Below are positions 1 through 40,685 of a stretch of 64,000 bases of DNA, in pieces. How positions within the stretch are numbered: position 1 is the stretch's first letter; every line of letters starts with the position of its first letter. Source of the stretch: Paraspadella gotoi (lineage: Eukaryota; Animalia; Chaetognatha); the NCBI GenBank assembly GCA_051294375.1, contig CM119266.1, positions 5,188,564 to 5,252,563 of the forward strand, written 5' to 3'. The position numbers and the translations under genes were made by a program. Below the pieces are notes generated by a model that worked only from the letters and a program-made list of their open reading frames with translations, was not told where the DNA came from and searched no databases.

Positions 1-182
1 ACGCACGATGAGCGACGCGTGCAGCCCGACAGTCGCAGTCTCGACTTGACGCATCCACGCGCGATGATAAAGAATTTCGTATTCGAGCAAAATCTTGGCT
101 ATTTTGTTGTAGTTGCGGACAATCTTCTTCGCTTCCGGACCCTGAGGTGGGGACCATTCAAGTGGCTCAGTCTGTATGTATG

Positions 183-266
<84 letters not shown>

Positions 267-2508
267 TCTCTCGTCGTACCTGCAAGATGTTGTGGTGCTG
301 CGCGAAAATTTCCATCGGCTCCTGAAGGAAAACAAATTAATTTTCATTATCAATTATTTCAACTTTTTATGAAACTGACTTATTTTTCCATTCAAACTCA
401 TTTCCACTCGCACGATGCCATCAAATCTTTATTTCCGGCTCAACCACCCGATTTCCAAACGCAAAGTTTAAATTAAATTGATCCATTCAATCACTAGTTT
501 TTGGAACTTAAAACTCAACACGGCAGTAATGACCAAATTCAACATTGGCCAATAATGGCCAAAGCCCTAAGACATCCACAAATTAAACCAATCTATAACT
601 TCTAATAAAATCAAAAATGTAAGAAATGATCGAAACTGCTCAAATCTCATTTTAAATAAACCAAAAGCGATTCTCCTCCGCATCCACAGTCAACTCTCCC
701 CAACCAACCTGTATCCTCCTGAAGAGCTGCCTGGCCCAAGTGATCTTTCCCGCTACTGGAGGCAAATCCCTCGCTATCGGTGGCTCAGCTTTGTTGCGTT
801 GATAAAGTTTCGAGACGAATTCGACATCTCGGCCAAAATGAGCGAGGATCCGAGCGTACTTCTCTTGGATGCCGAGGTTGGGGAGACCGAGCTTCTCGAA
901 CCGGTGCAACAACTTGGTTGGGGAGGGGGTGGACGGGAAAATGGGGTTGGGAGTAAGATGGTGAAATGGTCGGTTTTGGATCGTCACATTGGGTCAGTTC
1001 TCAAAGATTTGCAATGGTCTTTAGTGAAGCAGTATGCAATGAATTCTGTGAAAATTTTTTTTTAATTATGCAATTATAAACTCTCTCTCTTTCTCTCTCT
1101 CTCGCTCTCTCTCTCTCTCTACCTGCAGGGCCCGTTGAGTGTTTGAAATCCTCTCGAAGCGAGAATCCATAAATCCTGAGGAAGAAATCAATAATGAACC
1201 TCGTCTCTTACTCATCTCTCGTCGTAAGATTCATTTCAACGAACTTACCCGAGGTTTTCACCTCTAATTTGAGAGTTCACCGATCGGGGCGACCTCACCC
1301 CGAAACAACTTACCTCTGATATTAGAGTGAAGTTCAGCGATTTGTCTCTTAAAGTCTTCATAATCATCGTCGAATTCCATTCTTCTCTGATCCAAAAAAT
1401 CGTAAGGTCGATTTTTCATCATCGATCGAATCTTTTCAAAATTTTGCGACATCGTCTCCATGCCTTAATTAAGGGGAGGGGCGGAAGTTTCGTGGAATAG
1501 TTTGAAATTGGACAATGATTGAAAAAATTAACCATTGATTTATTAAATAGTAAGCTATTTGGGCTACTGAGATAGGAGAAAATGTTAATCAACTGTTAGA
1601 GCACTTGTCTTTCTAATAAATTTTAATTAATATAACGACTTTTGAAAAAAATTATTTCCAGCACAACTAAACAGAAATGTTATCGCCCCTAGATAATAGC
1701 GTTTATTTTAAATTTTATAATTTCAGCATTAAAAAAAAAACATTATTTAGTCACTTTATACACTTAATAACTTGTCCTAGTTAATAAAGTATTTAAATAA
1801 TAAACCAATCTTAAGGCCACATTATCCCCAAACAATGAACTCACCCTCGATCCTAGATTCAGAGAGATGACAGTAAAGATCGAGCGTATTGAACATGTCG
1901 ATGATTTTCCTGCATCGACGAACGAAAGTATCGAATTTCCCGAAGATGTACATTTCTGAGAATTCGAATTGACGCTCGTTGGGCATCTCTTCCAATTTGC
2001 GCTTGGTCTTGTGGAAGCACTGTTGGTACTCCTGGGGACAGTGGTAATAAATAATTAGAAATGAACAACTAAAAGCAATAATTACAGATCAATACAACCA
2101 ACAATAATAAAATTACGATATTAAAAAAAATTAGTATTTTAAATCAAGTAACTACTAAAACTACACAATTGTTAGGAATATAATTCATTCATTTATTCTT
2201 AACAACAACATATTAAGCGATAAAAATTAAGATAAATACTAGAAAAAATATACATCGACAATAACAGATTTATTAAAACCAACTATACAATAAGAACATT
2301 AATTACATCGTCAACCCGAAACATCTTCAACAGCCCCATCAACGAACCCCATTGAGGTTGATGCAATCCTCAAGCTTCTTGACGACTTTCTGTTGATCTT
2401 GAGTCCAAACTGTTTCCGTGTTGTGACACGTGACGTAGGTTTTGCAGGCGGTGATCATTTGGTTGGTGATTTTCACGAACAACGACGTCATTCTGAGGGA
2501 GAGGGAGG

Positions 2509-2551
<43 letters not shown>

Positions 2552-3249
2552 TAAAGGAGGATAGGGTAAAAAACAGAAGAAATGTCCGGGAAGTACGAGC
2601 AAGTAGTTAATGGTAAGGCAGTAGGGAATCATTTAAAAACGATTGCACTTACCTTTCGGACGTGTTGTAGAATCTTGAAATGCTATGAATCATTCTGATC
2701 GCGTTGATGAGACCTTTTGATCGGGATAAATTGGTTTAAATGAGCTTAATAATTTAATTAATTTAATTGATTGAAGGCATAATTGATTTATTTTATTAAA
2801 ATAAATCCATTAAGTCCTCAATCAATCAATAAATTCCTACATCAAAGTCATCTATTCCGTGAACCAATTAATCTTCAAAGAAGCAATCAATCAATCAATG
2901 AATCAATCAAAATCCTTCCGACGCTCTTTCTCTACCGGGAATGCCGTCCATCATTCCCACTGGATTCGAATTGTAAAGCGGATCGCAGAATTTCTCCAAA
3001 GTGTAGAGGAACTTGACGTTGTCTTTGGCTTCGTTGGCGGCGTCGGTGATGCGGACGTCGAGTTCGCGCCAAGACTTGGGGCGGAGGGGGGGGGGTAAGG
3101 GAGGAGGGAGAGAATGGGGTAAGGGAAGGAGGTATTTAAGGGGTGGGAGGGGAATGGAAATTATTTTATTTTTATAATTAAATGAAATTTGAAATATACG
3201 TATGTTAAATACTAGCTGAGGCCTCTCTGACAATAGACGCCCGTTTTCA

Positions 3250-3299
<50 letters not shown>

Positions 3300-3330
3300 A
3301 TACCTATCTTTTTTAAAGGAAATTGGTTCA

Positions 3331-3367
<37 letters not shown>

Positions 3368-6300
3368 TTCTTTCCCTTTCTTTTCTTTCTTTCTTTTTTC
3401 TTTCTTTAATTATTCTTTTTCTCCAGCTTACTTTCTCATCACAACTCAATCGCCTCCAAAGTTCACGACTAAAAAAAGGCAGTGAGTGTGAATAGGGCTA
3501 TTTCTAAAAGGGGCCTTCCGACCATTAAGCCGATAAATCAATGTTTCACCCCCCCCCCCAAAACCCTCTCCTCCCCAAAAACTACCTTCAACGATTTCGA
3601 CTTGGCGGCCTGGAGACATCCGAGGACGGCCTTGACCGGTGGAGACTTGATCTGATCGACGAGGTAGTTGAACCTCGACATCCTCTTCTTCCAATGTTCC
3701 AGTTCGGCGCGAGGACCGATGTCGTCGGCCTCTTTGCGCATCTGTTCGCTCTCGGCCAGAACCTGTCGAAGGGGGTGTTAAAGGGGTGGACGGGGATGTT
3801 GAGAAAAGCGTAGTGGGTAAGGGATGTTGAAGAGGGGTGTGGAAGTTTTTAATTCTTCGATCTTGAGAATTAAAAAGGAGGGAAACTGGACTTTTAGAAA
3901 ACTGAATTAACCACCTTTTTTTTTTTTAAATTTCGGAGAAATTTCTTTTTTTCCCCTCGATTCAACCCTAATAATGCTATTTAATTTTTAAGCTTGCCCT
4001 ATCAACTTTCTTATTTTACAACTTAACGTTTCGTACAAATTCTATTTTCGTTGCGCAATCAAGAGGAAATAATGACTAATGACTAATTTTAAATTCTGAC
4101 TAATAATGACTAATGACTAATTTTAAATTCTGAATCATAATGACTAATGACTAATTCCACACTTTTCTCCAGCTACTCCTCCAATTAAATCCTTTTCATT
4201 ATTAAATTATACAACTGTCAATATAGAATCCAACTAAACGATGTTACATCAACCTTTTTTGTTTAACCTGAAATGTAAAGAATAGAAAAAAATAAAACTT
4301 TCGAATCCCGGTTTGACCACTTTCCGCATTTCCGAGAAATGTCCGAAAAGTATATTTAATTGGCGCGCGGTAAAAGTTTGTAAAATTCGCTCGCTCGCTC
4401 TCTCGTTTGATTGCTCGCCATCATTTTTTAAGCGTGATTATTGACAATATTGGACTTTTTACAGTTAAATTTATCGCTCATTACAAACAAAATAAAAAAG
4501 GAAAAACAGAGATAAAAAAAAATGGCTCCGAAAGCCATAAAGTCATCGGGTCGAAAGTCCGGATACAACAAGAAAGGAAACCGTTTCACGGTTTACGACA
4601 AAAAACGTGGTAATTATTCATACAAAAATATGGATGGAAGCACTTATTACAATGCTGGTAAAAATCAAGGCTCTTTTTATCGAAACATGGACGGACTACG
4701 ATGGTGAGTAAAGCCTGAGAGTGTGTGGACTGAAGTTTGTCAAAAAAAAAAAATGTCAACCTTATGGTGGGCTAAAATCCACCATTTTCGTCCACCATTT
4801 TAGTCCACCATAACCTTTTCGTTTCAGCTACGAGAATTCGTCCGGCGTCAGATTCTGTTCTACTACGAAGACTAAAAAAAAGTAAGAAAAAACTAGTTGA
4901 CTAAATAGCATTTTTATGAAGCAATGAACTTAATTATCATTATTCCTAAATTTAGATCCGCTGGCGGCCGTAGAAAACCTCCCAAAAAAATTTGACGAAT
5001 ATTTGGGAAAAATCTTTCTTGACTTTATTTTCAACCCCTGAATAAAATATCAAATAACAATTGAGAGTAAGGCGACGGTCAAAAGACTTCTGTTTTGTGG
5101 CCAGTGAAAACTGTCCCATTCAAGTATGACGTTTGACCGATTGACCTGTTTTGGTTTTAATAACTTTTTGAAATATGATTTTAATGTTTTTTTAAATTAA
5201 ATAATAAATCGTAAGCTATTTCCTACGCCCTTTTTTTATTTTCGAGTATCGCAAGATTTGGAGATCAAAGTTCCATCAGTCGAATCTGCGATTGGTCGAA
5301 AAAGAAGCGAAGCTGCTCGACCACATTTTATTCTGATTTCGAAGAGAATTTAATTACTGGAAGCGTATAATTTTCTTTTTTTTTAAAATCAATAAAAAAA
5401 TCCGCTCATTTTTTAACCTTCTTATTGAATTTTTTATCGACTTGCGATGATAATAACTAGAACAAAAACGTTAACAAAAACTTTAAACACTAATCTCTTT
5501 TTTGTACTCACAGTAATCCTATCGAACCTGAGACCATGTCGGACAAAAAAACCGATGCAAAACCTGAACGTCAAACCGGAACGAATCGAGACGGTAATTC
5601 TTTCACGAATTACGGACAACCGCGCGGCAACTTTTACTACAAAAATGCCGACGGCAGTCGGTATTACTCCGCCGGAAAAAATCAAGGATCTTTCTATCAG
5701 AATCCGGCAAAGGGCTATCAATGGTACTAAAACTCGGAATTTTTAATTCAACTTAGCCTAATGATTAAACACAATATTATTGATTTAAAAGGTACGAAAA
5801 CTCTGCCGGAGACAGGTCTTATTCGCCCTACCCAAAGAAGTAAGTTATGAGAATTAATTTAAATTGCGAATTGAGTTTTTAATTTTAAAAATTGAACAAG
5901 AAAACTAAAACTTTCGACAGATCGGAGGACGGACAAGGCAAAAGCAAATCCCCGAAATCTGGGAAATAATAAGTCAACGTCAAGTTCAAAAATATTTCGT
6001 CTGCGATGCCGAAAAAGTACGAATGCGACCTATTTTAAATTATACAAATCGTTTATTTATAACCTAGTTCATCTTAGGGAATAATGTCTAGATGTTTGTT
6101 ATTTATTATAAAGAGATAAAGAGATAAACCGAAATTATAAATTTTTGAGATAAATACAAATATATTTAAAAAAACTTCATTGATCTTTTTTTTCATTGTA
6201 TTGTTTCTTTAAGCTATGAAAAAAGGTAGACATAGTGTAATAATCATTTCTCTTTCGTTGTGTCAGGATATTTAGTGAAAAGATTTGAAGTAGATTTCCC

Positions 6301-6641
6301 AACGATTTTATTAATAATTAACGCACATGTTAAGACGGTTAAACTGCTTGTAAAATGTCGCTACAGCTCAATCAAAAGTTAGGAAACAGTAGATTTAAAA
6401 CAAACCGAAATAGACCATGTCGGAAAGTAATGCTGTATAAATTCAATATTAGTCACGAAGCTAAAATTTTCTCACATAATGGGTTATTTTAATTTTGACT
6501 GATTTGACGCGAAAAAAACTTTGAACTTTTGTTTTGTCTCGAGTTTTCCAAACTCGTCTTATCTTTGAAGATAACATTTTTTTTGTGTTTTCCAAATCTT
6601 ATCGGGAAAAATGGGGAATGGAGAAGGAGGGAGGGAGGCAG

Positions 6642-6718
<77 letters not shown>

Positions 6719-9700
6719 TTGGGCAAGGAATGCACGACCTCACAAAGGAGGGTTGTGATAAGTCGTGATTTGTGATTCCAGAAACGAAAGCAGCTGTTTT
6801 CTCACCGACTGCGTTTCACTCCTTCGAAAATAAATTATTGGAAAGGAAAAAAAAATGCTGAGTCAGAAAAGTTTGGCCGACCTGGCGGAGAGGAAGAAGA
6901 CGTCGGGAGAGTGGGGAGTGTCGGAAGTGGGGGAGTGTCGGAAGTGGGGGAGTGTCGGAGGAAGAAAGACGTCGGGAGAGAAACCGTACTGAAGACCGGC
7001 ATCGCGGGCGCCGTGATGTTTGCAAATAGGTTTTTTTTTTTATAATATTTTTTTTTTAAAATACCCTGACAATATATTCGAAAATCTATTCAGAATCTCC
7101 GATATGAAAGATCCCCCAAATAAAAGCAACAAAATAAAAGCAATAAAAGCAATAAAAGCAACCCCGTTAATATAAGACACGTTTGTCTTTTTGTCTTTTT
7201 ACGCGGGAAATTAAGATTTCGGGTTCAAATTTCATTCATAGTATCACAGACTCACAGTATCATCCTAAGTCCCCTCTCTAGTGTTTTTCTTTTACTATTA
7301 TTATTATTACATTGCAATTATTTCAAAATCTAAGAATAAATTATAATATTTAAGGCAATCAGTTTATTTTGTCATTGCTATCATATAAGTTATATATATA
7401 TATATAAGTTATATATCATTTTAACTCATAAATCTTGCGAACGAGAGAGTGAGAGAGGGAGAGAGTAAGAGAGATAGAGAGAGATAAAAGATAGAGAACG
7501 GGCGCTCAGTTAAATACGGAGTTTGGGAAAAGGGAACTACTTTGTGAGCGCATAACGCTTGCGTGAATACGATTAAGAAAAGGAGGAACGGAGGAAAAGA
7601 GACAAAGAGAGAGGAAAGGTATAAAAGGAAAGGAAGGAAAGGAAAGAGGACGAGAACTCTTTTTCCATCCAAGGAGGCAAGAGCTGTGTTGTGCTATGCC
7701 TAAAACTTTTATTTTTCTACTAATTGTGATGTGTAACCTTTATGGAGATAAACAACGGAAAACTTAATTTGCTCTTCATTAATTTCTGCTAACAAAGTTA
7801 GTAAAGCTTCCGGGCTCGTTAGTAAGGTGTTGTAGCGGTCAAGTTGATACAAATTTTCGTCTTTCACGACTTTAAATACGTTGAATTTTGAAATAAACAT
7901 TTTTTTAGGCTAGACCAAAATTTTTGTCAGAGGTGTCAGAAAATTAATTGGCTCTCTGTTAGCGTTTTTTTTTCTATATTACAAATCTTAAAATATAGTA
8001 ACAAAGCTTTTCTTAAAATGCTCGTCGCACATATTAAATCAAAGATGATGTTAAGTTAGAACTAATAGAAGCGACACGGATATTCCTCTCTGCGATCGAT
8101 CCTCGTCCTCCTCCTCCTCCTCCTCCTCCTCCTCGCGTCCTTTTCGGTCACTTTCTCTCCCCGAAGAATTACGCCTCATCGCTCATTATTCGTAAACAAT
8201 TTTGTAGTTTAAAATTTGTAAGACCACTTTTTTTTAACCAGAGCAAAATCCTCTTACATTTTAACTCTTTCTTATTTTCTCGCTTTTCAGTTCACGAAAC
8301 TTTCGCGAAATTTCCGCTTCGAAGCAAATCTACGATTTTCTTTTTGCGCTATTACAAAATCGATCAAAACCGGCGAGATGTCTGAAAAAAGATCGGGCAC
8401 CAATAATCAAGGAAACGCCTACACCAATTACGGCGAGTCCCGCGGCAATTACTACTATAATAATCAAGATGGCGGCCGTTACTACAACGCCGGGGAAAAC
8501 CGAGGCTCGTTCTATTCGAACGCCGACAAGGGATACCAATGGTAAGTCTTGGATATAAACTAGACTTAGGTTTGACACTGATGTGGAGCGATACATAATT
8601 TGTGCCGCTAAACCGCCAGGCAACAGACTTCTCAAATGCTTATATTTTAGGTATCAGAATTCCTCGGGAGAACGATCCTATCAATCGTACGGAGGCTCGA
8701 AAAAGTGAGTTAACGCTTATGAATTCACAGGCTTTCGTAATATTATTAAACTTAATTTTATAGTTGAATTATGTATGAAATTGCTATAAGTTATAACCAA
8801 TATAAAAATTATCCATTCCTAATGTATATAACTTTTCGTCTTCAGTTCCGGAGCCGGACAAGGCAAAGGCGGATCCGCCGGAAAATCTTGAGAGTCGGAA
8901 ATTCTCCGAAGAAATCCGATTCTATATCATGGAAGAGACTTGTCAAGTTAACTAAATTGTCTGCGTTTTACAAACAACAAACAAAATGAATTAGTTTTGA
9001 CTTTAAATCCAAGAAAATACGTTGGTTGAAATCATGTACTGTTTTAGTTTATTATCCTCAGATCAAAATCGCTTTTTATTGCTTTGTCAAATTTGTGTTT
9101 AATCGCGTTCAATTCCGTAGCAAGTTTTTGTTATCGTAATTCGTCCCAAACAAACACATTCCTAATTACGTTTTATATATCACATTTATCCAGTTTTTAA
9201 CCGAGGATTAAATCTACCTTTTTGACTAAAAAATCTGCTCTTTAAATCTACGATCAAAACTTTGGCCATGGCCGAACGCCGCTCGGGAACGAACCGTCAC
9301 GGAAACGATTACACGTCCTACGGCGGACATCGTCAAAATTATTACTACAAGAATCAAGATGGCGGACGATACTTCAACGCTGGACAAAACCAAGGATCGT
9401 TTTACCGCAATTCTGACAAAGGATATCAATGGTGAGGACAGTGGGTTGATGGGAAGACTAATAAAGTTTGAAATCAAACCGTCCATTTAAATACTTGAAC
9501 AATTCAAGAATGTATTTATTTGATGTATAATAATCCTTGACTTCTGTTTCGTCGCAGGTACCAAAACTCCTCGGGCGAAAGGTCTTACAAGCCTTACGGC
9601 GGAAATCATGGGTAAGTTAAACATTTTTAGCGAATGACTTCCAAAAATCTTTGACTTTGTTGCTGATTCAATGTTTAAATCGAATTTTCATTTTACAGTG

Positions 9701-12700
9701 GACAGCTCCCGCCCGAAACGCGCAGTGGCGTCAACAGACAAGGCAACGAATATACTCAGTACCGCGACAGTCCGTCCAGCTATTCTTACGAGAACATGGA
9801 CGGTGGTGAATATCATCATCACGGACCGAGTGGCAGCTCAGAGTATCACAACGCCGACAAAGGATACGAATGGTGATTAATTAATTAATTGTGATTAATG
9901 ATTGTTGGCATTTTACCAATTCTGATCCTCGCGTTTATAAACTGTCGTTAAATTACGTAATCCTAATCATTTACGTGCTAAGTATTATTTAATGTTATTT
10001 ATTCATATATTTAATGTTAAACATAATTTAAATATTCGTCTCAGGTACCAGGATGCTTCCGGTGAGAGGGTTTATGGCAAATACAACTGAATAACCCCTG
10101 CAGGTGATTTATAAATCCACTAGTTAAGACTTCTGACTAAAAGTTTTGAAATCTACGTTTCTTTTTGCAGGGATGTTGATTACGGTGCGTTTTGCGTTCT
10201 ATTCGCTCAATAGAAGTCGCGTTCAAATGTTGTGAAATCTCTACGAAAAGCTAAAGTTTGTTTTTATAAATTCCTTCGTTAGAAAGTAGACGTATTTTCG
10301 TTTGTTCGTTGCTGTTTTCATTTCTTTCTCAAAAATGAAAAATTCTAAAAATTCATTTTCGAACTCCTACAAAAGAAAAACCCTACAAATGTGAAATTTC
10401 TCAGTTTAGCAGTTTTTTTTAGTGTAGTCAGAAAAATTAACTTTAGAATGTATGAAACCGTACGCGTCATCGTTTTTATTACATTTGATCAAAGAAAATT
10501 TTAAAATTTGATTTTGCTTGATAGGAACCAAAGTTAAGATCTTTTAAGGTAAATATTTGTGGTATTAAAATAAAAGAAAATAACCCGGTTATTGAATTAA
10601 CCAAGTAATCCGTAATTGTTGCATAGTATTTATGGGGTAATTTGATTATTCAATCGATCGTCGTCATTCGCCTGGCCTCACCTGTTCGATCTGCCTTATC
10701 CACATGCTCATGCACTCTTCGATCTTCTCCATTATCTCTGGGTTCTGAGCGGCGGCGATAAAGTCCGCCGGGCAGGTCAGCGTCGAGAGGTCGTAGTTCT
10801 CACTAGGTTGCAGCATCACTCGTTCCCGGAGGCTTTCTTGGGCACCCTAGTGGACGAAATGTTTGTACTAATTTAGTGTAATTAAACTGTAAAGAGTAAC
10901 AAAATACATTTTGTTTCTGCTGGTCGATCGCAAACTTCGATTAAAAAATTTTCTAGATTATTTTTCACTTAAAGAAGCAGAAAAGAACATCAAATCATTC
11001 GATATGGATTTTATAATCAATAGGCTGGCTTAGTAATTATAATTTAACCTGCGTTTAGCCTTCCCATCTGTATTTTCACAAATCACCTCAAGGATGTGAA
11101 CGAAGGACTCCAGGTGATTGAGAAACTCCATCCTTGTATCCAACCCGTCGGGACCTGCCAGGGCCCCCCAACCTGAATCGATGGCAAGAAGGGAGGGGGG
11201 GGGGGAGAGATAATTTGATTTGTTTGCCGATAGTCGCCACTTTGTTAGCATAGCCCGAATGATAAATGTACACTTCTTTTTCTGTGTTGGACAAGGGACT
11301 ATAGGGAAAGGTTTTTGTGGCCAATAGACTCTTAAACCCACCCGAATCCATGGCCCTGATCATCGGAATATAGATCTTCTGCAGCAGCTCCTGAATCCCC
11401 TTGAGGAGGCCTTGGCTCGCATCCAGGATGTTCATGCAGATTTCCCGTCCGACCGTCTGCTCGGTCAGCGGCGGGCGCGTTGTTCGGACGCAGGAACGAG
11501 ACGCACATTCCCGTCAACGCCTCCTTGCGCCCGTCCGTGATGAAGAGGCGCTTCCGCCCGGAGCGCTGGGGGCGTGCCACGGCGCCGTAGCGTTGCAGGT
11601 CGGCTGGCGTTGAGGGGGGGAGGGTGTTGTGGGGTTAGAGATGGTGGGGCGGGAGGTTAATTTATTCATGAGTTTATTATGTTTGAAGACAATTTACATA
11701 TTACATAACACATTTTACTTATACCACGCGCGTCGGAGGATATAAGTGAAAGAATAAATGCGTTTTGCTTTGAGATTGTTTTTGTAATTGTTTATTGAAA
11801 ATTCTATTATTGAAAAATATAATAATCCTTTCTTTATGTTGCTCTTAATGTAAATTTTTTCACAGTTCGACGCTTATGGTAACCGACCGATTTTGAACAT
11901 TAGTTAACAAAGATTAGTCCCGTCGACAAGATGATACATTAATTGTATTCTAAGAAATAAAACTCGATCCGTGAACAAACAATGTCAAATAACTTTTATT
12001 GAACAAATTTAAGTATTAAACTCAGTCGAACACGAATTTTAACAGTTATGATAAAGCATAGTTGTAGTAATTAGCACGGATATCTTTAAAAAATTTTTTC
12101 GATTTCGATAAACATGAGCTTTTATACATGAACAAAAAATCGTTGCAATGATATTTTAAGAATCACCTGGTGTATTTGTAGGAACGACTAATTCTTGGAA
12201 TACAATAGTAAAACGAAACAGTTTATTGCAACGACTAGTATGTTAATTCGATGTGGTTAAGTCAAGCTCCACTGTTAAATAAAACTATGGATTACTTCTT
12301 TTACAAGCTTTCCGGGTTATTTAACTTTTTACCTTTATATTTTTCTGCGCGTTTTTACCATCGCGGAATTAGATTACGAATTATTTGAAATGTAATGTTT
12401 CAAAAAATAATCGAAATATCACATTTTCTTGCTGTTATAAATTTTAATCGTGTTTTAATTACGTATTGAATATGTTAAAACGACGATTACTAGGTATTAA
12501 ATTGATCATTCTTACTATTTATGAAAACTAAAAAGTTTATAAATTAAAAAAAAAATTTAAAGAACAAACCTTGATCATCTTTTGTTTCAGCTTCCTGGTA
12601 GAAAAACAGCAGCGCCTTCGATCCTTTGGCGGCGAATAACGCGTTCATGCGTTCAATCTTTAAAAAAAAGATCAGAAAATCAATACATTTTGTACTAGTG

Positions 12701-13486
12701 TGAGTATTGTGACTCATGGCCGTTCGGCCCGTCCAATGAAATAACCGATTAAGTCGAATCTTAAGCAATATTGTGTTACTATTGATCCTGTGATAAGATA
12801 ATGCTTAATGTTTAATATTTTGTTTATTATTGATTATTTCAGTCTCACCTGATTGCCCTCTAAACAACAGTCCTCGACCTCTGACCTCTCCAACAGCAAA
12901 ACGTCCGCCACCATGAGAATGATCCACTCGTGACAAGGACCCAGCGAAGCTCTCTTCGCCTCTCTCTCTTCCTTCAGTTTCATCTGGGATAATAAAATTA
13001 ATAATAAAATTAAAAACATCGTTTATTAATATCTAACTTTAGAGAAAAGTTTGAAATGAATTTAACAACGATTTATTTGAAACAACATTTGACATGTTTC
13101 GGCTCTTGTTCAAGCCTTCATCAGTGTTTGAACAAGAGCCGAATCATGTCCGTTATTATTGTTTCAAATAAATCGTTGTTGAATTCTTTTCAAACTTTTC
13201 TCTAAATCTCAACCACAACGAAACGAAAGGATTATAATGTCAAATATCTAACTAAATTTAAACTATACACAATATACTCTAAATTAATCCTCTCCCGCTA
13301 CCCTCAATAATTATCAATTAATCATCACTTTACTCATAAAACATTGTTCACCTGTTTTTCTTTGATATTTTCTCCGGGGGCCAGCGCCGCCAAGCGGGAC
13401 TTTTTGGCGTCTCCCCCCACCGCCTGACCTCGTCCGCCGGCGGGTTTCTTTTCTTTGGCGCCTCCATCGCCTGCCGCTTCTGCCAT
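1..13486 (-). CDS. DNAH5: Axonemal outer-arm dynein heavy chain (DNAH5/DNAH8 family), N-terminal tail region; gene continues beyond the left edge of the window
   Basis: Phase-consistent GT-AG exons (minus): 13486-13352, 12983-12849, 12657-12570, 11603-11342, 11172-11087, 10846-10682, 3762-3586, 3074-2936, 2713-2653, 2492-2348, 2031-1845, 1463-1314, 1175-1123, 912-709, 321-280, 141-<1. Peptides [99 protein letters not shown] and [25 protein letters not shown] are recognisable DHC_N1 sequence of the DNAH5/8 group. One +1 frameshift near 11470. DNAH5 versus DNAH8 cannot be separated in an invertebrate. Confidence 0.93.
4522..4995 (+). CDS. Nested small gene A, 91 aa, basic member of the GYNS-rich beta-hairpin-repeat family
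   Basis: Exons 4522-4703, 4828-4881, 4956-4995 (GT-AG, both introns phase 2). Protein [97 protein letters not shown] at 5041. Aligns with genes B-D and shares their intron positions. Confidence 0.82.
5536..5969 (+). CDS. Nested small gene B, 94 aa, GYNS-rich repeat family
   Basis: Exons 5536-5723, 5792-5839, 5921-5969. Protein [94 protein letters not shown]. Intron 1 splits the Trp codon (TG|G) as in C and D. Confidence 0.85.
8378..8891 (+). CDS. Nested small gene C, 87 aa, GYNS-rich repeat family
   Basis: Exons 8378-8541, 8651-8704, 8846-8891. Protein [87 protein letters not shown]. Absent from the ORF track because each exon is short. Confidence 0.87.
9268..10090 (+). CDS. Nested small gene D, 145 aa, two tandem copies of the GYNS-rich domain
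   Basis: Exons 9268-9431, 9558-9611, 9699-9872, 10045-10090; possible 3'UTR intron 10104-10170. Domain 1 [70 protein letters not shown]; domain 2 [66 protein letters not shown]. Confidence 0.87.
13040..13206 (-). mobile_element. Penelope-like element remnant: hammerhead-bearing pLTR fragment with inverted partial copy (long hairpin)
   Basis: Near-perfect inverted repeat (TTAGAGAAAAGTTTGAAA...AACAACGATTTATTTGAAACAA / TTGTTTCAAATAAATCGTTGTT...TTTCAAACTTTTCTCTAA). Minus strand 13126-13091 reads CA-CTGATGA-AGGCTTGAACAAGAGCC-GAAAC-AT-GTC, the minimal hammerhead motif typical of PLE pLTRs. Confidence 0.7.
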
Positions 13487-14504: not shown

Positions 14505-14518
14505 GTCGTCATGGTAAC
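14505..14518. promoter_or_regulatory. RFX X-box (ciliary gene promoter element)
   Basis: GTCGTCATGGTAAC fits the X-box consensus GTHNYY-AT-RRNAAC at every position. It lies about 1 kb upstream of the dynein ATG, which is preceded by a splice acceptor (ccag|AAG ATG), implying a 5'UTR exon near here. Confidence 0.75.
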
Positions 14519-17890: not shown

Positions 17891-20339
17891 ATGTCTTGGA
17901 TAAATGTATCGATCCTTTTGCTTTTTCTCGGATTCAACTTCGTCTCTTCAACGGCGACCATCGCGTCGACGGGTAAAGAGTTTTCGGCTCCATTTTTCGA
18001 AACCACCCCATTTCATCTTAAATTCGAATTTTTTTAGGTTTAAAGATTAGTTTAAAGATAGAGTTATGGATTAGTTTAAGGATTAAGGTTATAGATTATG
18101 TAAAAAACGTTTATTATTTTTTATGCCACGAGAGTCGTCCATACAGCCGATCTTTTCCAGGGAAACGATTATGATTGAATAACAAGTGACGAGGTTTTTG
18201 GCTAAAAGAAAGTTACAAGAAAGCGACTAGAACGGTGAAAAGACTGGTCTGAAAAGGTCAACTAAATGACCAGGGAAAAATGACCGGTCGCGAGGTCACA
18301 AAATCTTTCAGATTAGGTTACTGATTAAGGGCTAGAGATCATTGAATAAAGATCAGGGTTTGCGGTAAAGGTCTAATATTAAGGTTTAGGTTTAGGGTTA
18401 AAGATTAGTTAAGGGCTAAGGATTAGGGTTTTAGATTAGGGTTAAAGATTAGGTAAGGGCTAAGGATTAGGGTTAAAGATTAGGTAAGGGCTAAGGATTA
18501 GGGTTTTAGATTAGGGTTAAAGATTAGGTAAGGGCTAAGGATTAGGGTTAAAGACTAGGGTTAAAGATTATTCTCAGAATAAAAGTTCATCTTGATTTCG
18601 TCCTTAGAAATCTTTGAATTTTACAGATTAGTATTAAATATTAAGATTAAAAATAATTTTAGGGATAGAGGAGCAGAACTGGTGCGCTTTGGAAAATAGA
18701 GCCTAGTTTCCTCTTTTTTTTAAAGATTTAATAATCTTTTCTCATAATTTTCACTCTTTATTTTTGATTCAGGTCAAGCCACTCCAACTGCAGTTATTGA
18801 GGTTTCTCTCACTTCCTCTCGTGCTTCTCTTCAACTTCCTTCATTAACCGCATTTTCAAGCGGAAACTCTGAAATAATTGCTGCCCCATCTTCTGTGATT
18901 CCCACTGGTACAGCAGATGGGACATTATCTATAGTTCCTGGCATAACAGCGGAAGTGTCCCAAACTGTTGCTGCAACATCATCCATAGTTCCTGTTGTAA
19001 CAGCAGAATTATCCAAAACTGTTGCTGCAACATCATCCATAGTTCCTAGTGTAACAGAAGAATTATCCGAAACTGTTGCTGCAACATTATCTATAGTTCA
19101 AAGTGCAACAGGGAAATTATCCAAAACTGTAGCTGCAACATCATCTATAGTTCCGAGTGCAACTGCGGAATTATCCGAAACTGTTGCTGCAACATCATCC
19201 ATAGTTCCTAGCGCAACCATGGATCTAACTGCAACCCCATCGTCTGTTATTCCTAGCGCAACGATTGAAGTATCTGTTATACCCAGTACAACAGCCGATA
19301 ATTCGGCCACACCATCCCTTGTCAATCCCAGCCAAAGTGTGGAGTTGTCCATCACTCCATCCTCGGCCACGCCCACTCCATCATTAGATGTCTCCGCAGC
19401 AACATCATCTGTATTTCCATCTGCATCCATAGTCGACCCTATATTTCCATCTTCTTCCTCTCTGGAGGCATCTGTCTCACCCACAATCAGCTCGTCCTTC
19501 GTCTCCCCCGCATCCCCGACGTTGTCGGCTTCGTTGTCGGCATCTTTGTCGGCGACGCCGCTTTTGTCCACTTCGATCGACGCCGGTTTCACTTCGACGC
19601 CGGTTTCGACTTTGCCGTCGATGTCCTTGGCGCCGTCGTCGTCGTCGTCGTTGGCGCCTTCGTCGAGTTCGGTCGTCGTCACGCCCTCTTCGTCGCCGGG
19701 TGAGAGACAAAAGACAGTGTCACAGTAACAGTGTAAAGAGACTAAAAAACTAAGCATCCTCACACACTCCATGATTTTTCTCAGAACCCTCTCCATGCGA
19801 CGCCAATCCATGTCAACATAGCGGCACCTGCCACGATTTAGATTCGGCGAATTTTACTTGCACCTGTCCGTCGAACTGGGAAGGAAACACCTGCGAAGAG
19901 GGTGAGTGTGAGAGTGAGTGTGAGGGTGAGTGTGAGGGTGAGAGTCCGCTAATGCCGAAATATTTACATAAATATTTTTTGGATAAATCATAATATGCAA
20001 ATGAGGTATATAGTAGGCAGGAACAGGTTGAAAAGTAGAAGTTCTCCCCGATCTAACACTTAAGGGATTGGTCTTTTCATACAATTGAAACATTCTTTGA
20101 AATATTATACCACTTCATTGATAGGGAAGCCAGGTGCTCTGGGAGTGAATAAACGGGACTGTGAGAGAGTCTTGATTGAAAGCTTGCAGGGACCTGCTAT
20201 GTCATTATCTTGTAAGAGTGATGGAGGCCTTAAACCACCAAAGCCTGTCCAAGGTCAGGGGCGGGATAGCTTATTTATTAAATGAATGGATAATTTTTAT
20301 ATTGGTTGTACCAATTTCATAAATAATGGTTAAGTCACT

Positions 20340-20381
<42 letters not shown>

Positions 20382-21874
20382 TTTTATAATTTTTCTTATT
20401 GATTAGCGCACGGAAGCATTTAAAGATTATTTTATTACTATACAAAGTTTAAATTTTTTAAAAAATTTTTCATTTTTTTTAATAGATTCTGGTAGAGCTT
20501 TAAAAATTAGATAAAGGTTATTTTTTTAAATTTTTTTGTTTTATTGATAAAAATTTTAAAAAACCATAAAATTCAGCCAATGATGATGATGATGATGATT
20601 TTCTAAGGTTTTTTTCTATTTTTAACCAATTTATTGTAAAAATTTGAAAAAATTGTCGTACTAACTTTTATTTATCTTTTCAAGCTCTATAGGAATCCGT
20701 TCTTAAAAAATTGTCATTTGTTATATATTTAAAAGCTTCAGTGCAACAACCCAATGAACTTATTCAAAAAGTTGCATTGAAAATTAATTTAGTGATAGAA
20801 GGAAAAAAAAGAAATGAACAGTCACTTGCTAATTACAGACGTTGACGAATGTCAAAACGAGGCATTGAACGGATGCTTCCCTAAGACATCCTGCGTGAAC
20901 AACAACGGAAGCTACGACTGCGTTTGTCCAGAGGGCGCGGAATTAAATAAAACAAGTGAGCGTAATAATTCCAACGTGATTTTGTTCATTGGGACGGAAG
21001 AATTAGTTAAACAATAATTAAACATTTAAACATTAAAGGGAAACAAACATGATGGAGTTTATTTTTTTTTTACCATATTTTTCACGTTATATGTTTTTTT
21101 AAAACAATCGGAACTACATTCTATAAATGTTAAATGTACATTATTATACATACTACATACTGATAGTATGTTAAATTTATCGCCTACTTTTCCTCCACCA
21201 GACATACGCCAGTGCGTCGACGTTAACGAATGCTCCTCCTCCTCCTCCTCCTCCTCCTCCCTCTGCTCCTTACGCAACCAAATCTGCCGCAACCTCGACG
21301 TCCTCCGTCCTCCCTTCGAGCCTTACGAATGCGGCTGCGCTCGCGGCTCCGTGCTCCGTCTGGGCACCGTGCCTTCGCGGTCGAGCGACTGCGATCCTTT
21401 CGAGGCCGTCGCGCCCGGAGTCTTCAGTCTGAAGGAAGAGTTCGTGCCCGAATTGAACGACCCCGAGTCGGTCCAATTCCGCCAAATGTCGGTCAAAGCG
21501 GGCAGTGTCGTAAAAGATCTTTTGAAGGCGAATTCGTTCGTCGGCTTGTCGGCCGCTTTCTCCAACGGAAGCGTCGTCGTTCGATTCAAGGTTCGTTTTG
21601 ATGCTGTTGCCGTTGCTACTGCTGCTGTCGTTGTTGTTATTGTTTTTGTTGTTGTCAGGGTCGTTCATTTGTTTCTAAAAATATATGATCTTTAATTTTT
21701 TATTGATCATAATCGTATGATTATTAATCGTCATCAGGATCATAATCGTCATCATCATTGTCGTCGTCATCGTCATCATTGTCATCATCATCATCGTCAT
21801 CGTTATCACCATCATAATCATCATGGTAATAATTGTCGACATGATCATCATAATTAATCGTCATCATCATCAAT

Positions 21875-21907
<33 letters not shown>

Positions 21908-24900
21908 GTCATCATCATCATCATCATCGTCATCATCATCTCCATCAGACTCCAATCCCACCCCAACTTTCCTTTAGGCATACTTCTCCGCTCCTTTCAA
22001 CGCCACCATACTCAACGAAACCATCGACGCCAATTTGGCCAAACTCTGCTCCGCCACGCCCACCGATTGCGTCGTCGCCGGAGCCAAAATCGACCCCAGC
22101 TCCGTCGAACTGAACGGCGACGCCGACGCCTGCGCAGAAATCGATTACTGCGAGGCTGCGTCGACCGAGTGCCGCGGCGTCGGCGGCGGAAGCTTACGCT
22201 GCATCTGCAGGGAAGGATTCGAGGCTTTTCCCCAAGAGACCCCGGATCGATTTAGATGCAGGGGTGAGTAGAGGGAGGGAGAGGGAGAGGGAGAGGGGAG
22301 GGAGAGGGTGGGGAGAGAGAGAGAGAGGGGGGAGGGAGAGAGAGAGAGAGTTTGTTTGTTTGTTTGATTAATGCATATTTTTGTTATTCATTCATTTATC
22401 GTTTATAAATTGAAATATATTGATTTCTTTCTTTATCCCAACGCAAGGTTAAAAAGTACTAGGTTTCTAGTTAGATATATATCAACCATCGTTTTTTTTA
22501 CAAATATTATAAGTTAATATTATTAATTTTAACGCTTCTCTTTTTAAATTCCTGACCAAACAAATACCATCTCATTTTTTCCAGACATCGACGATTGCGC
22601 CGTCAACCCCAAACTTTGCAACGAGTCGTCAAACTCTATTTGCATCAACGGTCCAGGCAAAGCCAGTTGCGAGTGCGATTTTGCCGGCAAATATCCGGAT
22701 TGCGAAGACTTTTGCGGCCGGTGCAAGAACGGGGCGAGTTGCGAGAAGGAATCTTTAAAGTGCAGGTGTGAATCTGTATTTAATTACCAATCATTAATAA
22801 ATAATCATTAATAAATAATCATTAATAAGTTGAGAAGAGGAAGAGAAGTTCAGGAAAAGAGGGTGAGCTAATCCTGTTAAATTTTAGAAACCAACATATA
22901 AGTTATTTAATATTATATAATGATAATTAATGGTTTTTCGATTAGTTGTGCCGCCGGCTACGAAGGCGGATATTGCGAAGCCAAGAAATCCTCGTCAACT
23001 GATTGGGAGACAACGGCCATTGCTCTTGGCGCGATCGCCGGAGTTTTGCTCTTTATCCTCATCCTCGTCGTCTTCTTCAAATTCATTCGGTTAGAGCATG
23101 AATTTAATTAATAATTAATAGTTGAATAGAAGAATTATTATTTATTCCATAATAAATAATATCGGGCGATGATTGATCAATCCATTGACGTGGAATCCCG
23201 CTTCTCTTTCTCGCGATTATCTTTTGTTTTTAATGCCGAATTCGAAAACCGCGCGCGCTCGCGCCCTCTCGCGGAAAAAAATTAATAAAACAAAAGGCCG
23301 CGACTTTTGAACCGACTGCGCAAGGGTCCGAGCGTCGCTTACGGGTTCTCACCCGGCTTGGATCTCGTCTACAGATTAGACAATGTAGATTCGTTTCCTT
23401 GTAGCGTAACCGGCCCGGCGGACTCGAATCAGAACGGGACGTTCAGGTATAAATTTATATAAAGTACCATGTCATATTTAACCCAGAGTCACGAACAGAA
23501 AGTGGAAAATGAGATTATCTTTGTCTCTCACAAAAACTCACTTGTCACAAAATTCATCAATTTTATAATTTCGATAAGATTTCGAATTTTACCGCACAAG
23601 TTTAAAATATGTCCAAATTGCACGTTTGACATGTTATTTAACAAGTACACAATTTTCGGTTTACTTCATTGACATAAAGAGTCTTTATAAAAAAAAATTA
23701 CGGCATGTAGTAGGTTAAAGAAGACATTTAAAGTAGCACTTGAACTATATTCTCTAAATTGTACTATATAACTGCTATTAATTTTCTCCAAACTGTTCAG
23801 TTATTAATGTTTATTAATATTTATTATTTTAATATTTATATATGTTAAACTTTTAAAATGTTAAAGCGCAATCAAATCTAACTAATTTTACGGAATTTTC
23901 CCGTCTTTTTACGCCACGAATTCTTTTTAAAAATTTTAGCAAAAGTAAAGAACCTGGAAGGTCATCGTCGAAAATCGGATCCTACGCTGGGACGCGAACC
24001 CGTGGCTCAGAGGATTCACTAGGTGGCGTCTACGTCGGGGACAAGAAAAGCGGAGATCATGAGGTGAGTGATCCTCTTTGGGGATTAGAGGATCAGTGGG
24101 AAATCAAAAATGGGGATCATGTCCCATAGGAGGAATGAAATTTGAAAAGATCCCGGAAGAGAAATGTATGTTCATGATTGCATAAAGCATATTGTATAAT
24201 CACTATAATGTATATTATTTTGGTGCATTTAAAAATGAACGGTGACCATCCAAAATGACAATTATATTTAAATGTCTGGAAAATAAATGTAATAAAAAAA
24301 TCTAATTAGAATGGTTTCATGATTTACTAATAATGAACTAAAATTCTGTCATAAGTTAAGAGTTAAAATTTCAAAGGCCTTTTTTCGTTGTAGAATCGAC
24401 GCCTGGATTCTGTACCAATTATCACGGAAGAAAGGCTCATTTAAATGGTAAACAAATATTTCAATTTAAATTTCGTTTAAAATGAGGTAATTTAATTAAA
24501 CTAAAATAGAACAATTTTTTTTTTACATTGGTCATTTGGTTGGTTCACAATTTTTTTTTCTTCCGAATCAGTAAAATTCAAGTTATAAATAAATAACTCT
24601 AAAATGTCAAGATAATTTCTCCCCTACTTTTCTTACTACTTCTCTCCTTCTACTCTTATCTTCAAACCACCTCTGCCCAATCCCACCCACTATCACCTTA
24701 CCCTCCCCTTACTCCCCCACCACCAACCCCCGTCAGTACATCGAGATGGACGACCCTCCCCCGTCCCGCGATTCCGAACGCGCCAGACTCACAGCGTTTC
24801 CAGGCAACGGACGCGCTCGCGATTCCCCGATTCCGCGGGCGCGTTACCCGACGCGGACTGATGGGCGTGACCCGAGAGACGCCGCTTACGAAAATCCCGT

Positions 24901-24955
24901 CGCGCCTCAAAGTCATTACGTGGATCCGGACGAGGGAGAGTCGACTTACCTTTGA
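17891..24955 (+). CDS. Transmembrane mucin-like protein with EGF and SEA domains (MUC13/HEG1-like architecture)
   Basis: Phase-consistent exons: 17891-17972 (signal peptide MSWINVSILLLFLGFNFVSST), 18773-19699 (Pro/Thr/Ser mucin region), 20839-20955 (cbEGF DVDEC...CVNNNGSYDCVCPEG), 21202-21590 (cbEGF DVNEC plus SEA with FSNGSVVVRF), 21978-22263 (SEA end plus EGF), 22585-22765 (cbEGF DIDDC plus EGF), 22946-23089 (EGF end plus TM AIALGAIAGVLLFILILVVFF), 23405-23446, 23940-24063, 24737-24955 (tail ending ESTYL*). The cytoplasmic exons are less certain. Confidence 0.85.
18378..18570 (+). repeat. Degenerate TTAGGG-like tandem repeat in mucin intron 1
   Basis: Repeats of TTAGGGTTAAAGATTAGGTAAGGGCTAAGGA. 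Confidence 0.75.
18931..19218 (+). repeat. 54-bp (18-aa) coding tandem repeat in the mucin PTS exon
   Basis: IVPGITAEVSQTVAATSS / IVPVVTAELSKTVAATSS / IVPSVTEELSETVAATLS / IVQSATGKLSKTVAATSS / IVPSATAELSETVAATSS. Confidence 0.85.
21725..21945. repeat. (TCA)n microsatellite in mucin intron
   Basis: Long imperfect ATC/TCA run; source of the spurious poly-His, poly-Met and poly-Asp ORFs. Confidence 0.9.
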
Positions 24956-26348
24956 ACTTACCTTTGAAACTCTAGTCCTCTGAACCTTTTTTTTTTGTCC
25001 CCTTTTGAACCCATTAGGATCAGCTCCACTCGCCATTTTCAATCTTAACATTGTTTGTTTTAAAGGATTATCATTTTTGCCTTTGTTTATATTTCATCTT
25101 GTTTATATTTCAGTTCTCTCTCTCTCTCTCTCTCTTTTTTTTGTTCCCCAAATTGTTAAATAAAAATAGAGAAAAAATTAAAAAAAAAAAATTAAGGAAC
25201 GGAAATGATCCTTCCTGTTTGATACTAAAATCCGCAGCTTTTTTCATTGTACATTAAATTCGGCAAAAAGTATTTCTTTATCATTATCCATTCTGCCAAT
25301 CAAATGATTGTACTTAATAAAAAAAAAACAACTGATTATCAGTTCTATACGGTTAAAACATTTTTTGCAATACATGTAATTCCTTCTTATCACGATGTGA
25401 TAAAATTTTGATACATACAAAAATATGAGTTTTGGTATATTACCCGTATGAAAAAAAAAGTGAATTATTGTTTACAGTTTTGCTTTTTTTCCTGGGCTCG
25501 TGGTATTTAAAAGAAAATGTGTTTGTCGCGTAGTGTTTATTAATACTAACAGCTATTGTGATATCGATCTTCTTTGGTGATTTTTACTAATACCTGAAAT
25601 TATATATTCTTTAAAACGTGTGATTTATTACATTTTTGGACTTTCAATAAAATCAAATGACAATCAATTATTGCTTCTTATATGTTTTATGAATTGTTAA
25701 AATATTTTTGTTTTACAAATTCTTTATCTGTTCTCTCTGTCCTAATTCAATCCGTCCTCAAATAAGTTTGGTTAACAAAACCCGCGCTTCATTCCTAGCG
25801 ATTGTTCACAGTACGTAATACTAAATAAGATAAATAAAAAATATTTTCAATTTATTTGCCTTTTTCACATTTTTTTTAAACTTGAGAAGTATTTTGTTAT
25901 TTCAGATAGTTTTATAATTAGAAACATATCAGTTATTAAATAATTTTCACTCATCAGCCTATAGTACAAAACTGATCTCTAACTAGTTCCTAAAGAAATG
26001 AAAGTTATTTTATAAATTAACAGTCTTTTTTAAGTAAAATCATTTTTACACATTGGAGCATAAAAAAATTTTGAAACTCATTTCGGCCCGACACAAACGT
26101 CGTAGAGAAATCAACAAAAGCTATTGTTGTAAAATGCTTTCAAAAAAAAAAAAAAAAAATTACTGAAACAGAAAATAATAAAAAATACCACGCATAAATT
26201 AAAAATATATTTATCTATATTAAGCAATTAAGCAATATTCACACATCAAACACTTTTTACATAAAAACGGACTCTCAAAATAGGTAACAACAATAAGTTG
26301 TGATCTGAACAAAATGGGCAACTAATGCAGGAAGTAGAATAAGAGTGA

Positions 26349-40513: not shown

Positions 40514-40682
40514 AGTCGTAACCCGATGGCTCATTGAGTAAAGCCATCAGCTCATGACCACTAGGTACCGGGTTCAATCCCAACCTTGTACCTACCCTAC
40601 GGAAAGTGTGAGGACGGCCGTAAGAATCCTTGGGGGAGTGGAAAACACTCAAGCCTGGTTCCAATCCCAGGGCCCGTTTTGT
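40514..40682 (+). mobile_element. tRNA-derived SINE, family 2
   Basis: A-box-like TGGCTCATTGAG, anticodon-like loop CTCATGA and B-box GGTTCAATCCC. The body (CCTTGGGGGAGTGGAAAACACTCAAGCCTGGTTCCAATCCCAGGGCCCGTT) recurs inverted at 50487-50558 and 54497-54566. Confidence 0.65.
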
Positions 40683-40685
40683 CCT

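Follow-up and report, generated by a model that had tools for sequence, protein, structure and literature searches.

The locus raises three questions: what is encoded by a set of small tyrosine-rich units packed into one intron of a dynein heavy chain gene of the chaetognath Paraspadella gotoi, how these units arose, and whether their position in that gene has any bearing on their function. The window analysed was a 64,000-nucleotide stretch of contig CM119266.1 (assembly GCA_051294375.1), on which an earlier note had proposed four separate plus-strand genes carrying five copies of one domain within a 6.9-kb intron of a minus-strand DNAH5-like gene. Transcript evidence came from run X1, which is probably an RNA run (its RNA status is presumed, its contigs are strandless and no listed run is registered as RNA), with read mapping covering positions 3400-7350, the A/B side of the cluster; in runs X2-X4 the matches were limited to short low-complexity pieces. 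The features of the locus are as follows.

1..13486, minus strand: 5' part of the host gene, a DNAH5-like outer-arm dynein heavy chain, which leaves the window at base 1
3763..10681, minus strand: host intron of 6919 nt with GT..AG ends, holding the cluster; its splice is bridged by an 8044-nt minus-strand X1 contig
14505..14518, plus strand: X-box-like site with 1 mismatch, ~1 kb upstream of the host ATG
4473..4703, plus strand: AB exon 1, with ATG 4522, the 5' part of domain A and a leader acceptor at 4464 (X1 contig)
4828..4881, plus strand: AB exon 2, the 3' part of domain A; read-through of its donor gives Lys-Lys-Lys-stop at 4885
5514..5723, plus strand: AB exon 3, a 7-codon linker, B's retained ATG at 5536 and the 5' part of domain B
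5792..5839, plus strand: AB exon 4, the 3' part of domain B, with its donor on Lys-Lys-stop (X1 contig)
5921..6132, plus strand: AB exon 5, a Gly/Lys/Ser tail, a stop ending at 5969 and the 3' UTR (X1 contig)
8378-8541, 8651-8704 and 8846-8891, plus strand: gene C, predicted from a sequence model (87 aa, one domain), with a leader acceptor at 8290
9268-9431, 9558-9611, 9699-9872 and 10045-10090, plus strand: gene D, predicted from a sequence model (145 aa, two domains), with a leader acceptor at 9193

The host and its intron were as the earlier note had described them: DHC_N1 was found in 5 exon frames, the exon at 10682-10846 matched human DNAH5 (E 5.6e-11), the start is likely the ATG at 13486, and the 14 other introns in the window measure about 140-970 nt (from approximate anchors). 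The five plus-strand domain copies also lay where they had been placed, within 3763-10681 (tblastn of copy against copy, E 1e-7 to 1e-24), and no sixth copy was detected by tblastn in the window, where the best match outside the known copies had E 0.04; a search of 3700-10800 against Rfam gave no match. In all five copies the first intron is in phase 2 and splits one and the same codon, TG|C in A and TG|G in the rest, and a second phase-2 donor follows 54, 48, 54 and 54 nt downstream in A, B, C and D1, again as had been noted.

The division into four genes did not survive. Although the four original models do translate to 91, 94, 87 and 145 aa, a 755-nt contig from run X1 merges A and B in one in-frame spliced transcript encoding 180 aa and two domains, and the rebuilt AB mRNA has exactly the same length of 755 nt. 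In it splicing runs from the second donor of A (4882) to acceptor 5513, which lies 22 nt 5' of the ATG of B, with the frame kept, and this joint (4881 to 5514, GT..AG) was covered in X1 to a depth of 200.6. The spliced form of the third exon first assigned to A (4956-4995) was not seen in run X1. Nine coding junctions had been predicted, of which three were found as stated and one uses another acceptor, the five in C and D lying outside the mapped 3400-7350. As A and B lie on one contig, the cluster likely consists of three gene units, AB being shown by the contig while C and D are predicted. For C the word share was consistent with expression, for D two-domain relatives are known (P0048 and P0004), and a fusion of C to D through acceptor 9193 was ruled out as it would break the frame.

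Decaying repeats or an assembly artefact would be a very improbable explanation of these copies. Copy A is divergent (Cys replaces Trp, and there is one deletion) and the first donor of B is non-consensus, as decay might leave them, but all four AB junctions are spliced GT..AG in run X1, which largely refutes this explanation for AB, the reading frames are intact, and relatives 78-88% identical were found in other samples. Between copies pS was 0.71-1.0 against a pN of 0.13-0.39, with synonymous sites saturated in 9 of 10 pairs, while protein identity was 40-78% and intron similarity was no higher than that of shuffles in all 10 pairs. Judged by these substitution patterns, the copies are old and have been kept by purifying selection, which upholds what had been claimed from the conserved coding motifs and diverged introns.

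Iterated searches recovered unnamed proteins of 45-150 aa from ascomycetes, Mycena, Saprolegniales, Chromera, Chironomus and marine plankton, including UniRef100_A0A229W3A2 (Aspergillus fumigatus), UniRef100_A0A0G4FES9 (Chromera velia), XP_012200866.1 (Saprolegnia parasitica) and CAG9797151.1 (Chironomus riparius), the last of which sits on a 61-Mb record. A kinship with small unnamed fungal proteins, suggested in the earlier note, was thereby borne out, and profile scores agree: a profile of 12 named ascomycete proteins, built with no window sequences, scored 12.8-18.7 bits on the five window domains, a score reached by 0 of 1000 shuffles for each domain, and a profile of 25 other, non-fungal relatives scored 29.7-37.2 bits, these profile relatives having themselves been collected by iterating from the window copies. 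The small G-T-N-S-Q-G-N proteins share with the window copies the G-x-N-x-x-G-N start, the Y-x-Y-x-N-x-x-G hairpin, Y-Y-x-x-G, the last conserved Tyr and the lack of a signal peptide; they frequently end in KK and are annotated as 'hypothetical' throughout. The ascomycete and oomycete forms differ in that an insert follows their first hairpin and the chain ends after about five strands, whereas members of the window subfamily are seven-stranded and come in tandem versions with two or three domains. Every one of the 70 aligned domains, those of the window among them, has Tyr22, Asn24, Tyr30 and Tyr41 (C-domain numbering), and as these positions played no part in choosing the alignment rows this speaks for a fixed fold and surface rather than composition alone.

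That no characterised family covers these proteins also held. When 5 exon translations, 24 alignment members and 11 homologues were scanned against Pfam at E up to 1, the rows returned were all weak and unrelated, with no match to TCP10/G-box or to the 23-residue MORN motif; NCBIfam gave a single sub-cutoff TraF-like row, from two repeat-bearing homologues; PHROGs gave no match; and a sequence search of the PDB gave two capsid rows at E about 1 and, in a second search, nothing at E up to 10, TCP10/G-box included. Searches of main texts with the family motifs and twelve locus tags or accessions returned no relevant paper, though the genes may be listed in expression tables of supplements. The ESM Atlas returned only unnamed fungal clusters (0.84-0.90, low recognition), which are a lead. 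Narrow pattern scans for related loci confirmed 0 in 92 + 228 metagenome stretches and 0 in 28 prokaryote-genome and 46 viral stretches, absence not being implied. P0016, a 1142-aa bacterial-type repeat protein (E 1e-4), was discarded as a chance match.

Horizontal transfer had been raised in the earlier note, and acquisition of the domain by the animal from fungi would fit the mainly fungal names among the homologues and the lack of vertebrate or model-animal names among the family search results. In the best tree, however, the window copies group with environmental sequences in a starred clade of 20 rows (98/87), outside the separate starred clade formed by the fungi (98/93), and the non-fungal profile scores the window copies at 30-37 bits against 13-19 bits for the ascomycete profile. 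AU tests rejected no alternative, leaving a grouping of the window clade with Mycena (p-AU 0.27) or a sister relation to the fungi as a whole (p-AU 0.56) standing, on an alignment of only 67 columns that limits the deep branches. Since another animal, Chironomus riparius, and other eukaryotes such as Chromera carry the family and the best tree separates the fungi, we regard transfer from fungi as improbable.

An AlphaFold2 model of a close homologue, P0005 (43 rows), rather than of the window's own spliced proteins, has seven strands with a pLDDT of about 90 over residues 51-110, while exon 1 of C modelled alone reached 64. The domain is thus predicted to be a free-standing one-layer seven-stranded meander with four N-x-x-G turns between short strands, in support of the stacked beta-hairpins proposed earlier. 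Each 60-residue domain has 0-5 aliphatic and 11-15 aromatic residues; with almost no aliphatics and no ordinary core, rows of tyrosines would have to hold the sheet together and also face solvent. The nearest folds were one-layer meanders, namely a C1 central-pair chain (Z 9.1, rmsd 7.7, 80 aligned), the CPAP TCP10 domain (Z 8.3, rmsd 4.1, 73 aligned; CPAP/SAS-4 chains 8.3 and 7.5) and MORN4 (Z 6.1), at levels that are background for such searches (the best Foldseek E was 0.055, and a Z of 7-8 is typical of unrelated models), and the matches also take in phage spikes and barrel pieces.

The TCP domain has been described as a core-less sheet with PDG turns whose aromatic residues bind prolines, and free-standing one-layer sheets were deemed unique to CPAP in 2013 (PMC3776556). 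The window domain, as predicted from the homologue, would resemble the CPAP/SAS-4 TCP10 (G-box) domain in being a single-layer antiparallel meander with Asx-Gly turns, no hydrophobic core and an aromatic surface (PMC3776556), but TCP10 has about 20 strands and PDG repeats and belongs to a large centriolar protein, whereas the window domain is a free 60-aa unit that is present also in organisms without centrioles. MORN proteins (MORN1, MORN4, radial-spoke heads, junctophilin) likewise have Gly/Tyr-rich hairpin repeats in an extended sheet and gave many weak fold rows, but the MORN repeat has another turn motif and spacing. The Y-x-N strand presumably resembles that of a WW domain, a candidate that was rejected on having at most one Trp (the signature being two plus a terminal Pro), seven strands against three, and no Pfam WW match.

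Our main reading, at a probability of roughly 0.4, is that this is an old tandem cluster of AB with the predicted C and D, whose domain is a predicted sheet with a likely intracellular aromatic surface that would grip extended, probably proline-rich, peptides. A soluble aromatic binding sheet is likely the best description, and the binding of peptides is proposed by analogy of fold with the CPAP TCP10 sheet. Exposed tyrosines would stack on the prolines or basic side chains of a partner, as suggested by TCP10, two- and three-domain versions would raise avidity or bridge two partners, and the genes would likely run from their own promoters.

That the proteins are instead self-assembling structural subunits is possible but unlikely: open edge strands would pair across molecules into sheets, fibrils or condensates in the manner of a functional amyloid, and tandem domains would accelerate this. 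Of the residues in the four original models 50% are G, S, Y or N, the predicted sheet has two free edges, tandem copies originated several times (AB, D, P0003, P0004, P0048), and the TCP sheet has been called reminiscent of an amyloid conformation (PMC3776556). The same source reports the TCP sheet as mainly monomeric (PMC3776556), though, and the position-specific invariants over fungi, insect and alveolate, together with the confident monomer model, fit a defined domain, while charged tails would be expected to counter stacking.

Tyrosine stacking combined with asparagine hydrogen bonds is a typical feature of sites that bind sugars and bases, and the tyrosine/asparagine surface might bind nucleic acid or carbohydrate with the help of basic termini, given the basic character of AB (pI 9.8) and C (pI 9.3) and the final Lys of 27 of the 39 short representatives. 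We consider this rather improbable, as D is neutral (pI 7.1), the net charge of 13 homologues ranges from -4 to +4 and no lectin or RNA-binding fold was prominent in the structure searches. No signal peptide or hydrophobic stretch was found, in agreement with the earlier note, so extracellular glycans would be out of reach.

AB is a nested gene, its contig lying entirely inside 3763-10681 and this intron being removed by host splicing. Nesting is in itself ordinary. Nested antisense clusters in long metazoan introns likewise consist of short duplicated genes in a large host (PMC5174743), but here the duplicates are old, with saturated pS, and two neighbours have been fused by splicing; a search of main texts for nested genes in dynein introns found no relevant paper. 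A link to cilia or sperm had been suggested from this location, by which the proteins would be ciliary or sperm accessory proteins that share the expression of their host. The DNAH5-like host with its upstream X-box-like site, the presence of host and AB contigs together in run X1, and best fold rows consisting of central-pair, radial-spoke, MORN and centriolar sheets all favour it. Against this, a pattern scan with an RFX consensus found no X-box-like site inside the intron, those near the locus being all upstream of the host gene, and solved axonemal chains gave no sequence match. The family is also widespread in Ascomycota and Basidiomycota, which are not known to have cilia. With most named homologues coming from such fungi and the intron lacking X-box-like sites, the link is weakened to the point of being improbable. 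The expression of nested gene pairs in Drosophila tends to diverge, which would also speak against it (PMC5174743), although a study of mammalian nested genes reports no such divergence (PMC8467205). The dynein host is thus likely incidental to the cluster.

The AB joint may indicate how the domains came to be fused. In A, B and C alike, reading through the second donor leads to a KK-stop 6-9 residues past the last strand, with the caveat that phase-2 donors starting GTAA or GTGA always yield a stop on read-through. A similar placement of a KK-stop was seen in 8 of the 13 cluster representatives whose last strand lies close to the terminus, KK closes 17 of the 39 short representatives, and B has kept its own ATG downstream of a good acceptor. 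D1 read-through gives no KK end, so the idea rests on three of the four cases. An ancestral Lys-Lys-stop may therefore underlie the second donor: a single-domain gene ending in Lys-Lys-stop would have moved into the intron and been duplicated there, its stop context (AAG-TAA/TGA) would have turned into a splice donor, and the new donor would have added tails (B and C) or captured the leader acceptor of the next copy (A to B), stops thus becoming splice sites that fuse domains.

Taken more widely, and tentatively, these may be ancient, eukaryote-wide and uncatalogued microproteins in which a minimal core-less sheet with Tyr rows and Asn-Gly turns forms a new binding or self-assembling module, with KK-stops turned into donors that fuse tandem copies to one another and, in a relative, perhaps to calmodulin, as P0006 and P0023 may show. 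The family joins moulds, mushrooms, a midge, water moulds, an alveolate and marine animals through strictly kept residues, with no Pfam model and no paper found, and since small genes escape annotation its true range may be far wider. If this is true, a natural 60-residue sheet would provide a clean system for studying how a beta-sheet stays stable with no core, the domain would be a possible new peptide-binding module, and the A-B fusion offers a checkable case of domain duplication through splicing.

Searched in translation, the window proved to contain five copies of the domain and no sixth, all of them similar coding stretches on the plus strand of 3763-10681, the intron of the dynein gene in which they had been proposed to lie. 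The minus-strand host was confirmed as DNAH5-like by DHC_N1, found in five exon frames, and by the exon adjoining the intron, which matches human DNAH5. Together with a neighbouring SEA/EGF mucin-like gene, this makes an invertebrate the likely source of the DNA. Translation also reproduced the earlier gene models, whose products are 91, 94, 87 and 145 aa long; their introns have GT..AG ends, and every one is in phase 2.

The sequencing run X1, whose RNA status was guessed and not recorded, contained a fraction 0.37 of the words sampled from 4400-10200. It was mapped to 3400-7350, the AB region, and gave a single contig of 755 nt, at a word depth of 200.6, whose four joints are all GT..AG:

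4703/4828, plus strand, joint 1 of the AB contig (X1, GT..AG)
4881/5514, plus strand, joint 2 of the AB contig (X1, GT..AG)
5723/5792, plus strand, joint 3 of the AB contig (X1, GT..AG)
5839/5921, plus strand, joint 4 of the AB contig (X1, GT..AG)

Joint 2 splices A to an acceptor 22 nt upstream of B's ATG, and the AB exons joined by coordinate make exactly 755 nt, with one 180-aa frame encoding two domains. X1 contigs carry neither strand nor expression level, so the strand here is taken from the splice signals. This spliced, in-frame A-B contig rules out the four separate genes of the earlier note, and the cluster is three units, AB and the predicted genes C and D. Exon 3 of the former A model was covered solely by an unspliced low-depth piece (4939-5405, depth 11.7) within AB intron 2, ending 9 nt past an AATAAA at 5391, which may mark a 3' end used by A alone, or stem from pre-mRNA or from priming on a run rich in A. 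By rough count, pieces around AB account for about 0.21 of the words and, with the C and D exons added, for 0.36, against 0.37 observed; this is a hint of C and D exons in X1, in a gap that unlisted intronic pieces could also fill. Between AB and C lies a short tandem repeat, rich in G (6832-7021), over which the summed contig depth reaches 650; it has no second copy within the window and is probably a dispersed repeat. The 3' UTR of D has a likely intron (10104-10170) starting 13 nt past the stop. A minus-strand X1 contig of 8044 nt bridges the host intron.

When the second donor is read through, A, B and C end in a KK-stop (at 79, 79 and 73 aa) and D1 in an HG-stop. Relatives with a single domain often share the KK ending, which closes 17 of 39 short representatives (42 of 72 with cluster members counted). 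B retains its own ATG and upstream acceptor, and comparable leader acceptors precede A, C and D:

4464, plus strand, acceptor-like site 57 nt upstream of the start codon of A
8290, plus strand, acceptor-like site 87 nt upstream of the start codon of C
9193, plus strand, acceptor-like site 74 nt upstream of the start codon of D

These may belong to 5' UTR introns or be trans-splice acceptors; the AB contig begins 8 nt past 4464, and no leader letters were seen at its start. It is plausible that stop contexts were co-opted as splice donors and that A captured B's leader acceptor. Because any donor of this kind brings a stop with it on read-through, the KK part is the sole evidence for the co-option.

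Among the ten copy pairs (58-60 codons, amino-acid identity 40-78%), pN was 0.13-0.39 and pS 0.71-1.0, with synonymous sites saturated in nine pairs and dN/dS at 0.16 in the remaining one. First-intron similarity beat its own shuffles in none of the ten pairs (lowest fraction 0.07). Purifying selection beside diverged introns, as previously proposed, is supported: the copies arose by duplication long ago, and their protein is maintained. In the databases, P0001 and P0008 end exactly at the Trp codon of the window's first intron, the outcome to be expected if a gene caller had run on into this intron in other species.

Homology searches returned 2 matches among 35 candidates and 21 among 1.84 billion representatives, and iterated searches 21 among 1086 candidates, then 49 among 1473. 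The closest relatives are unnamed proteins from ENA, JGI, Logan and marine catalogues, some of which carry the domain two or three times in tandem, and the named ones, all 'hypothetical', come from Mycena, many ascomycetes, Achlya, Saprolegnia, Chromera velia and Chironomus riparius. Profiles built without window sequences scored each domain above 1000 of 1000 shuffles, and hhalign of alignment A5 (three Mycena rows included) to an Aspergillus protein gave a probability of 97.8, so that the suspected kinship with small fungal proteins is more than composition. Sequence searches matched the domain to no curated family or solved chain, and no publications on the family or on nesting in dynein introns were found in main texts by motif, tag or phrase. 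Two JGI proteins, P0006 and P0023 (4 and 1 contigs), carry a window-subfamily domain in frame, N-terminal to a full calmodulin, and disagree with each other at 1 of 119 residues in the N-terminal part and at 7 of 149 in calmodulin; they may represent a true fusion, read-through of an operon or an assembly chimera.

The tree used 67 columns from 70 domains of 81 proteins, omitting 18 ids (a chance hit, cluster duplicates and intron read-throughs), and its motif rule missed a few domains from multi-domain proteins. Horizontal transfer from fungi to the animal, raised earlier alongside patchy distribution, is the less likely origin. Grouping the window clade with all fungi (p-AU 0.56) or with Mycena (0.27) survived the AU test, as did grouping with chironomid-like rows (0.22). 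Against transfer, the five window copies share a starred clade of 20 rows with environmental sequences, and fungi and Achlya form a separate starred clade; with 67 columns the deep branch order is weakly resolved. It is simpler to suppose an old family that is patchily distributed or under-annotated. The P0047 cluster (Achlya, Saprolegnia) has a fungal-type insert and is placed among ascomycetes, making it a candidate fungus-to-oomycete transfer.

Exon 1 of C alone was predicted to form five strands (pLDDT 64), and P0005, a complete homologue that shares 78% identity with C across exon 1, seven (pLDDT about 90, with 43 rows), in agreement with the stacked beta-hairpins proposed before. Read against the sequence, the strands are joined by four N-x-x-(x)-G turns. 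Domains contain 11-15 aromatic (His counted) and 0-5 aliphatic residues, and four Tyr/Asn positions that played no part in choosing the domains are the same in all 70 of them. Foldseek gave no match below E 0.001, and VIA scores were all near background (central-pair chain Z 9.1, CPAP TCP10 8.3, phage and injection-system spikes 7.3-8.3, MORN4 6.1), so the modelled domain resembles a one-layer meander but lies outside those families.

Function can be proposed for the family only by analogy. The CPAP sheet lacks a core, is monomeric and uses aromatic residues to bind prolines of STIL (PMC3776556), and the domain is predicted to be a similar meander to this aromatic-surfaced sheet, the Z of 8.3 being near background. 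By that analogy the domain would offer an intracellular peptide-binding surface (probability about 0.4). Self-assembly seems rather unlikely, and nucleic-acid or sugar binding more doubtful again. The cilia or sperm link suggested earlier fares worst: a scan of the window with an X-box consensus found 7 sites, of which one lies roughly 1 kb before the ATG of the host and none falls inside the host intron, and many homologues come from fungi that lack cilia. A near-palindromic X-box-like site (24796-24808) lies close to the end of a plus-strand mucin-like neighbour (~17900-25000; Ser/Thr-rich exon, EGF and SEA-like domains), and 40565-41716 has a plus-strand integrase frame of a retrotransposon, with rve and an H2C2 zinc domain.

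Nesting in the dynein intron is probably incidental. Short duplicates inserting into long introns are the typical origin of nested genes, and in Drosophila their expression diverges from the host (PMC5174743); in one mammalian study the contrary is reported (PMC8467205). The genes are real, expressed in the case of AB, and conserved, and they belong to a family that is unnamed but widespread.
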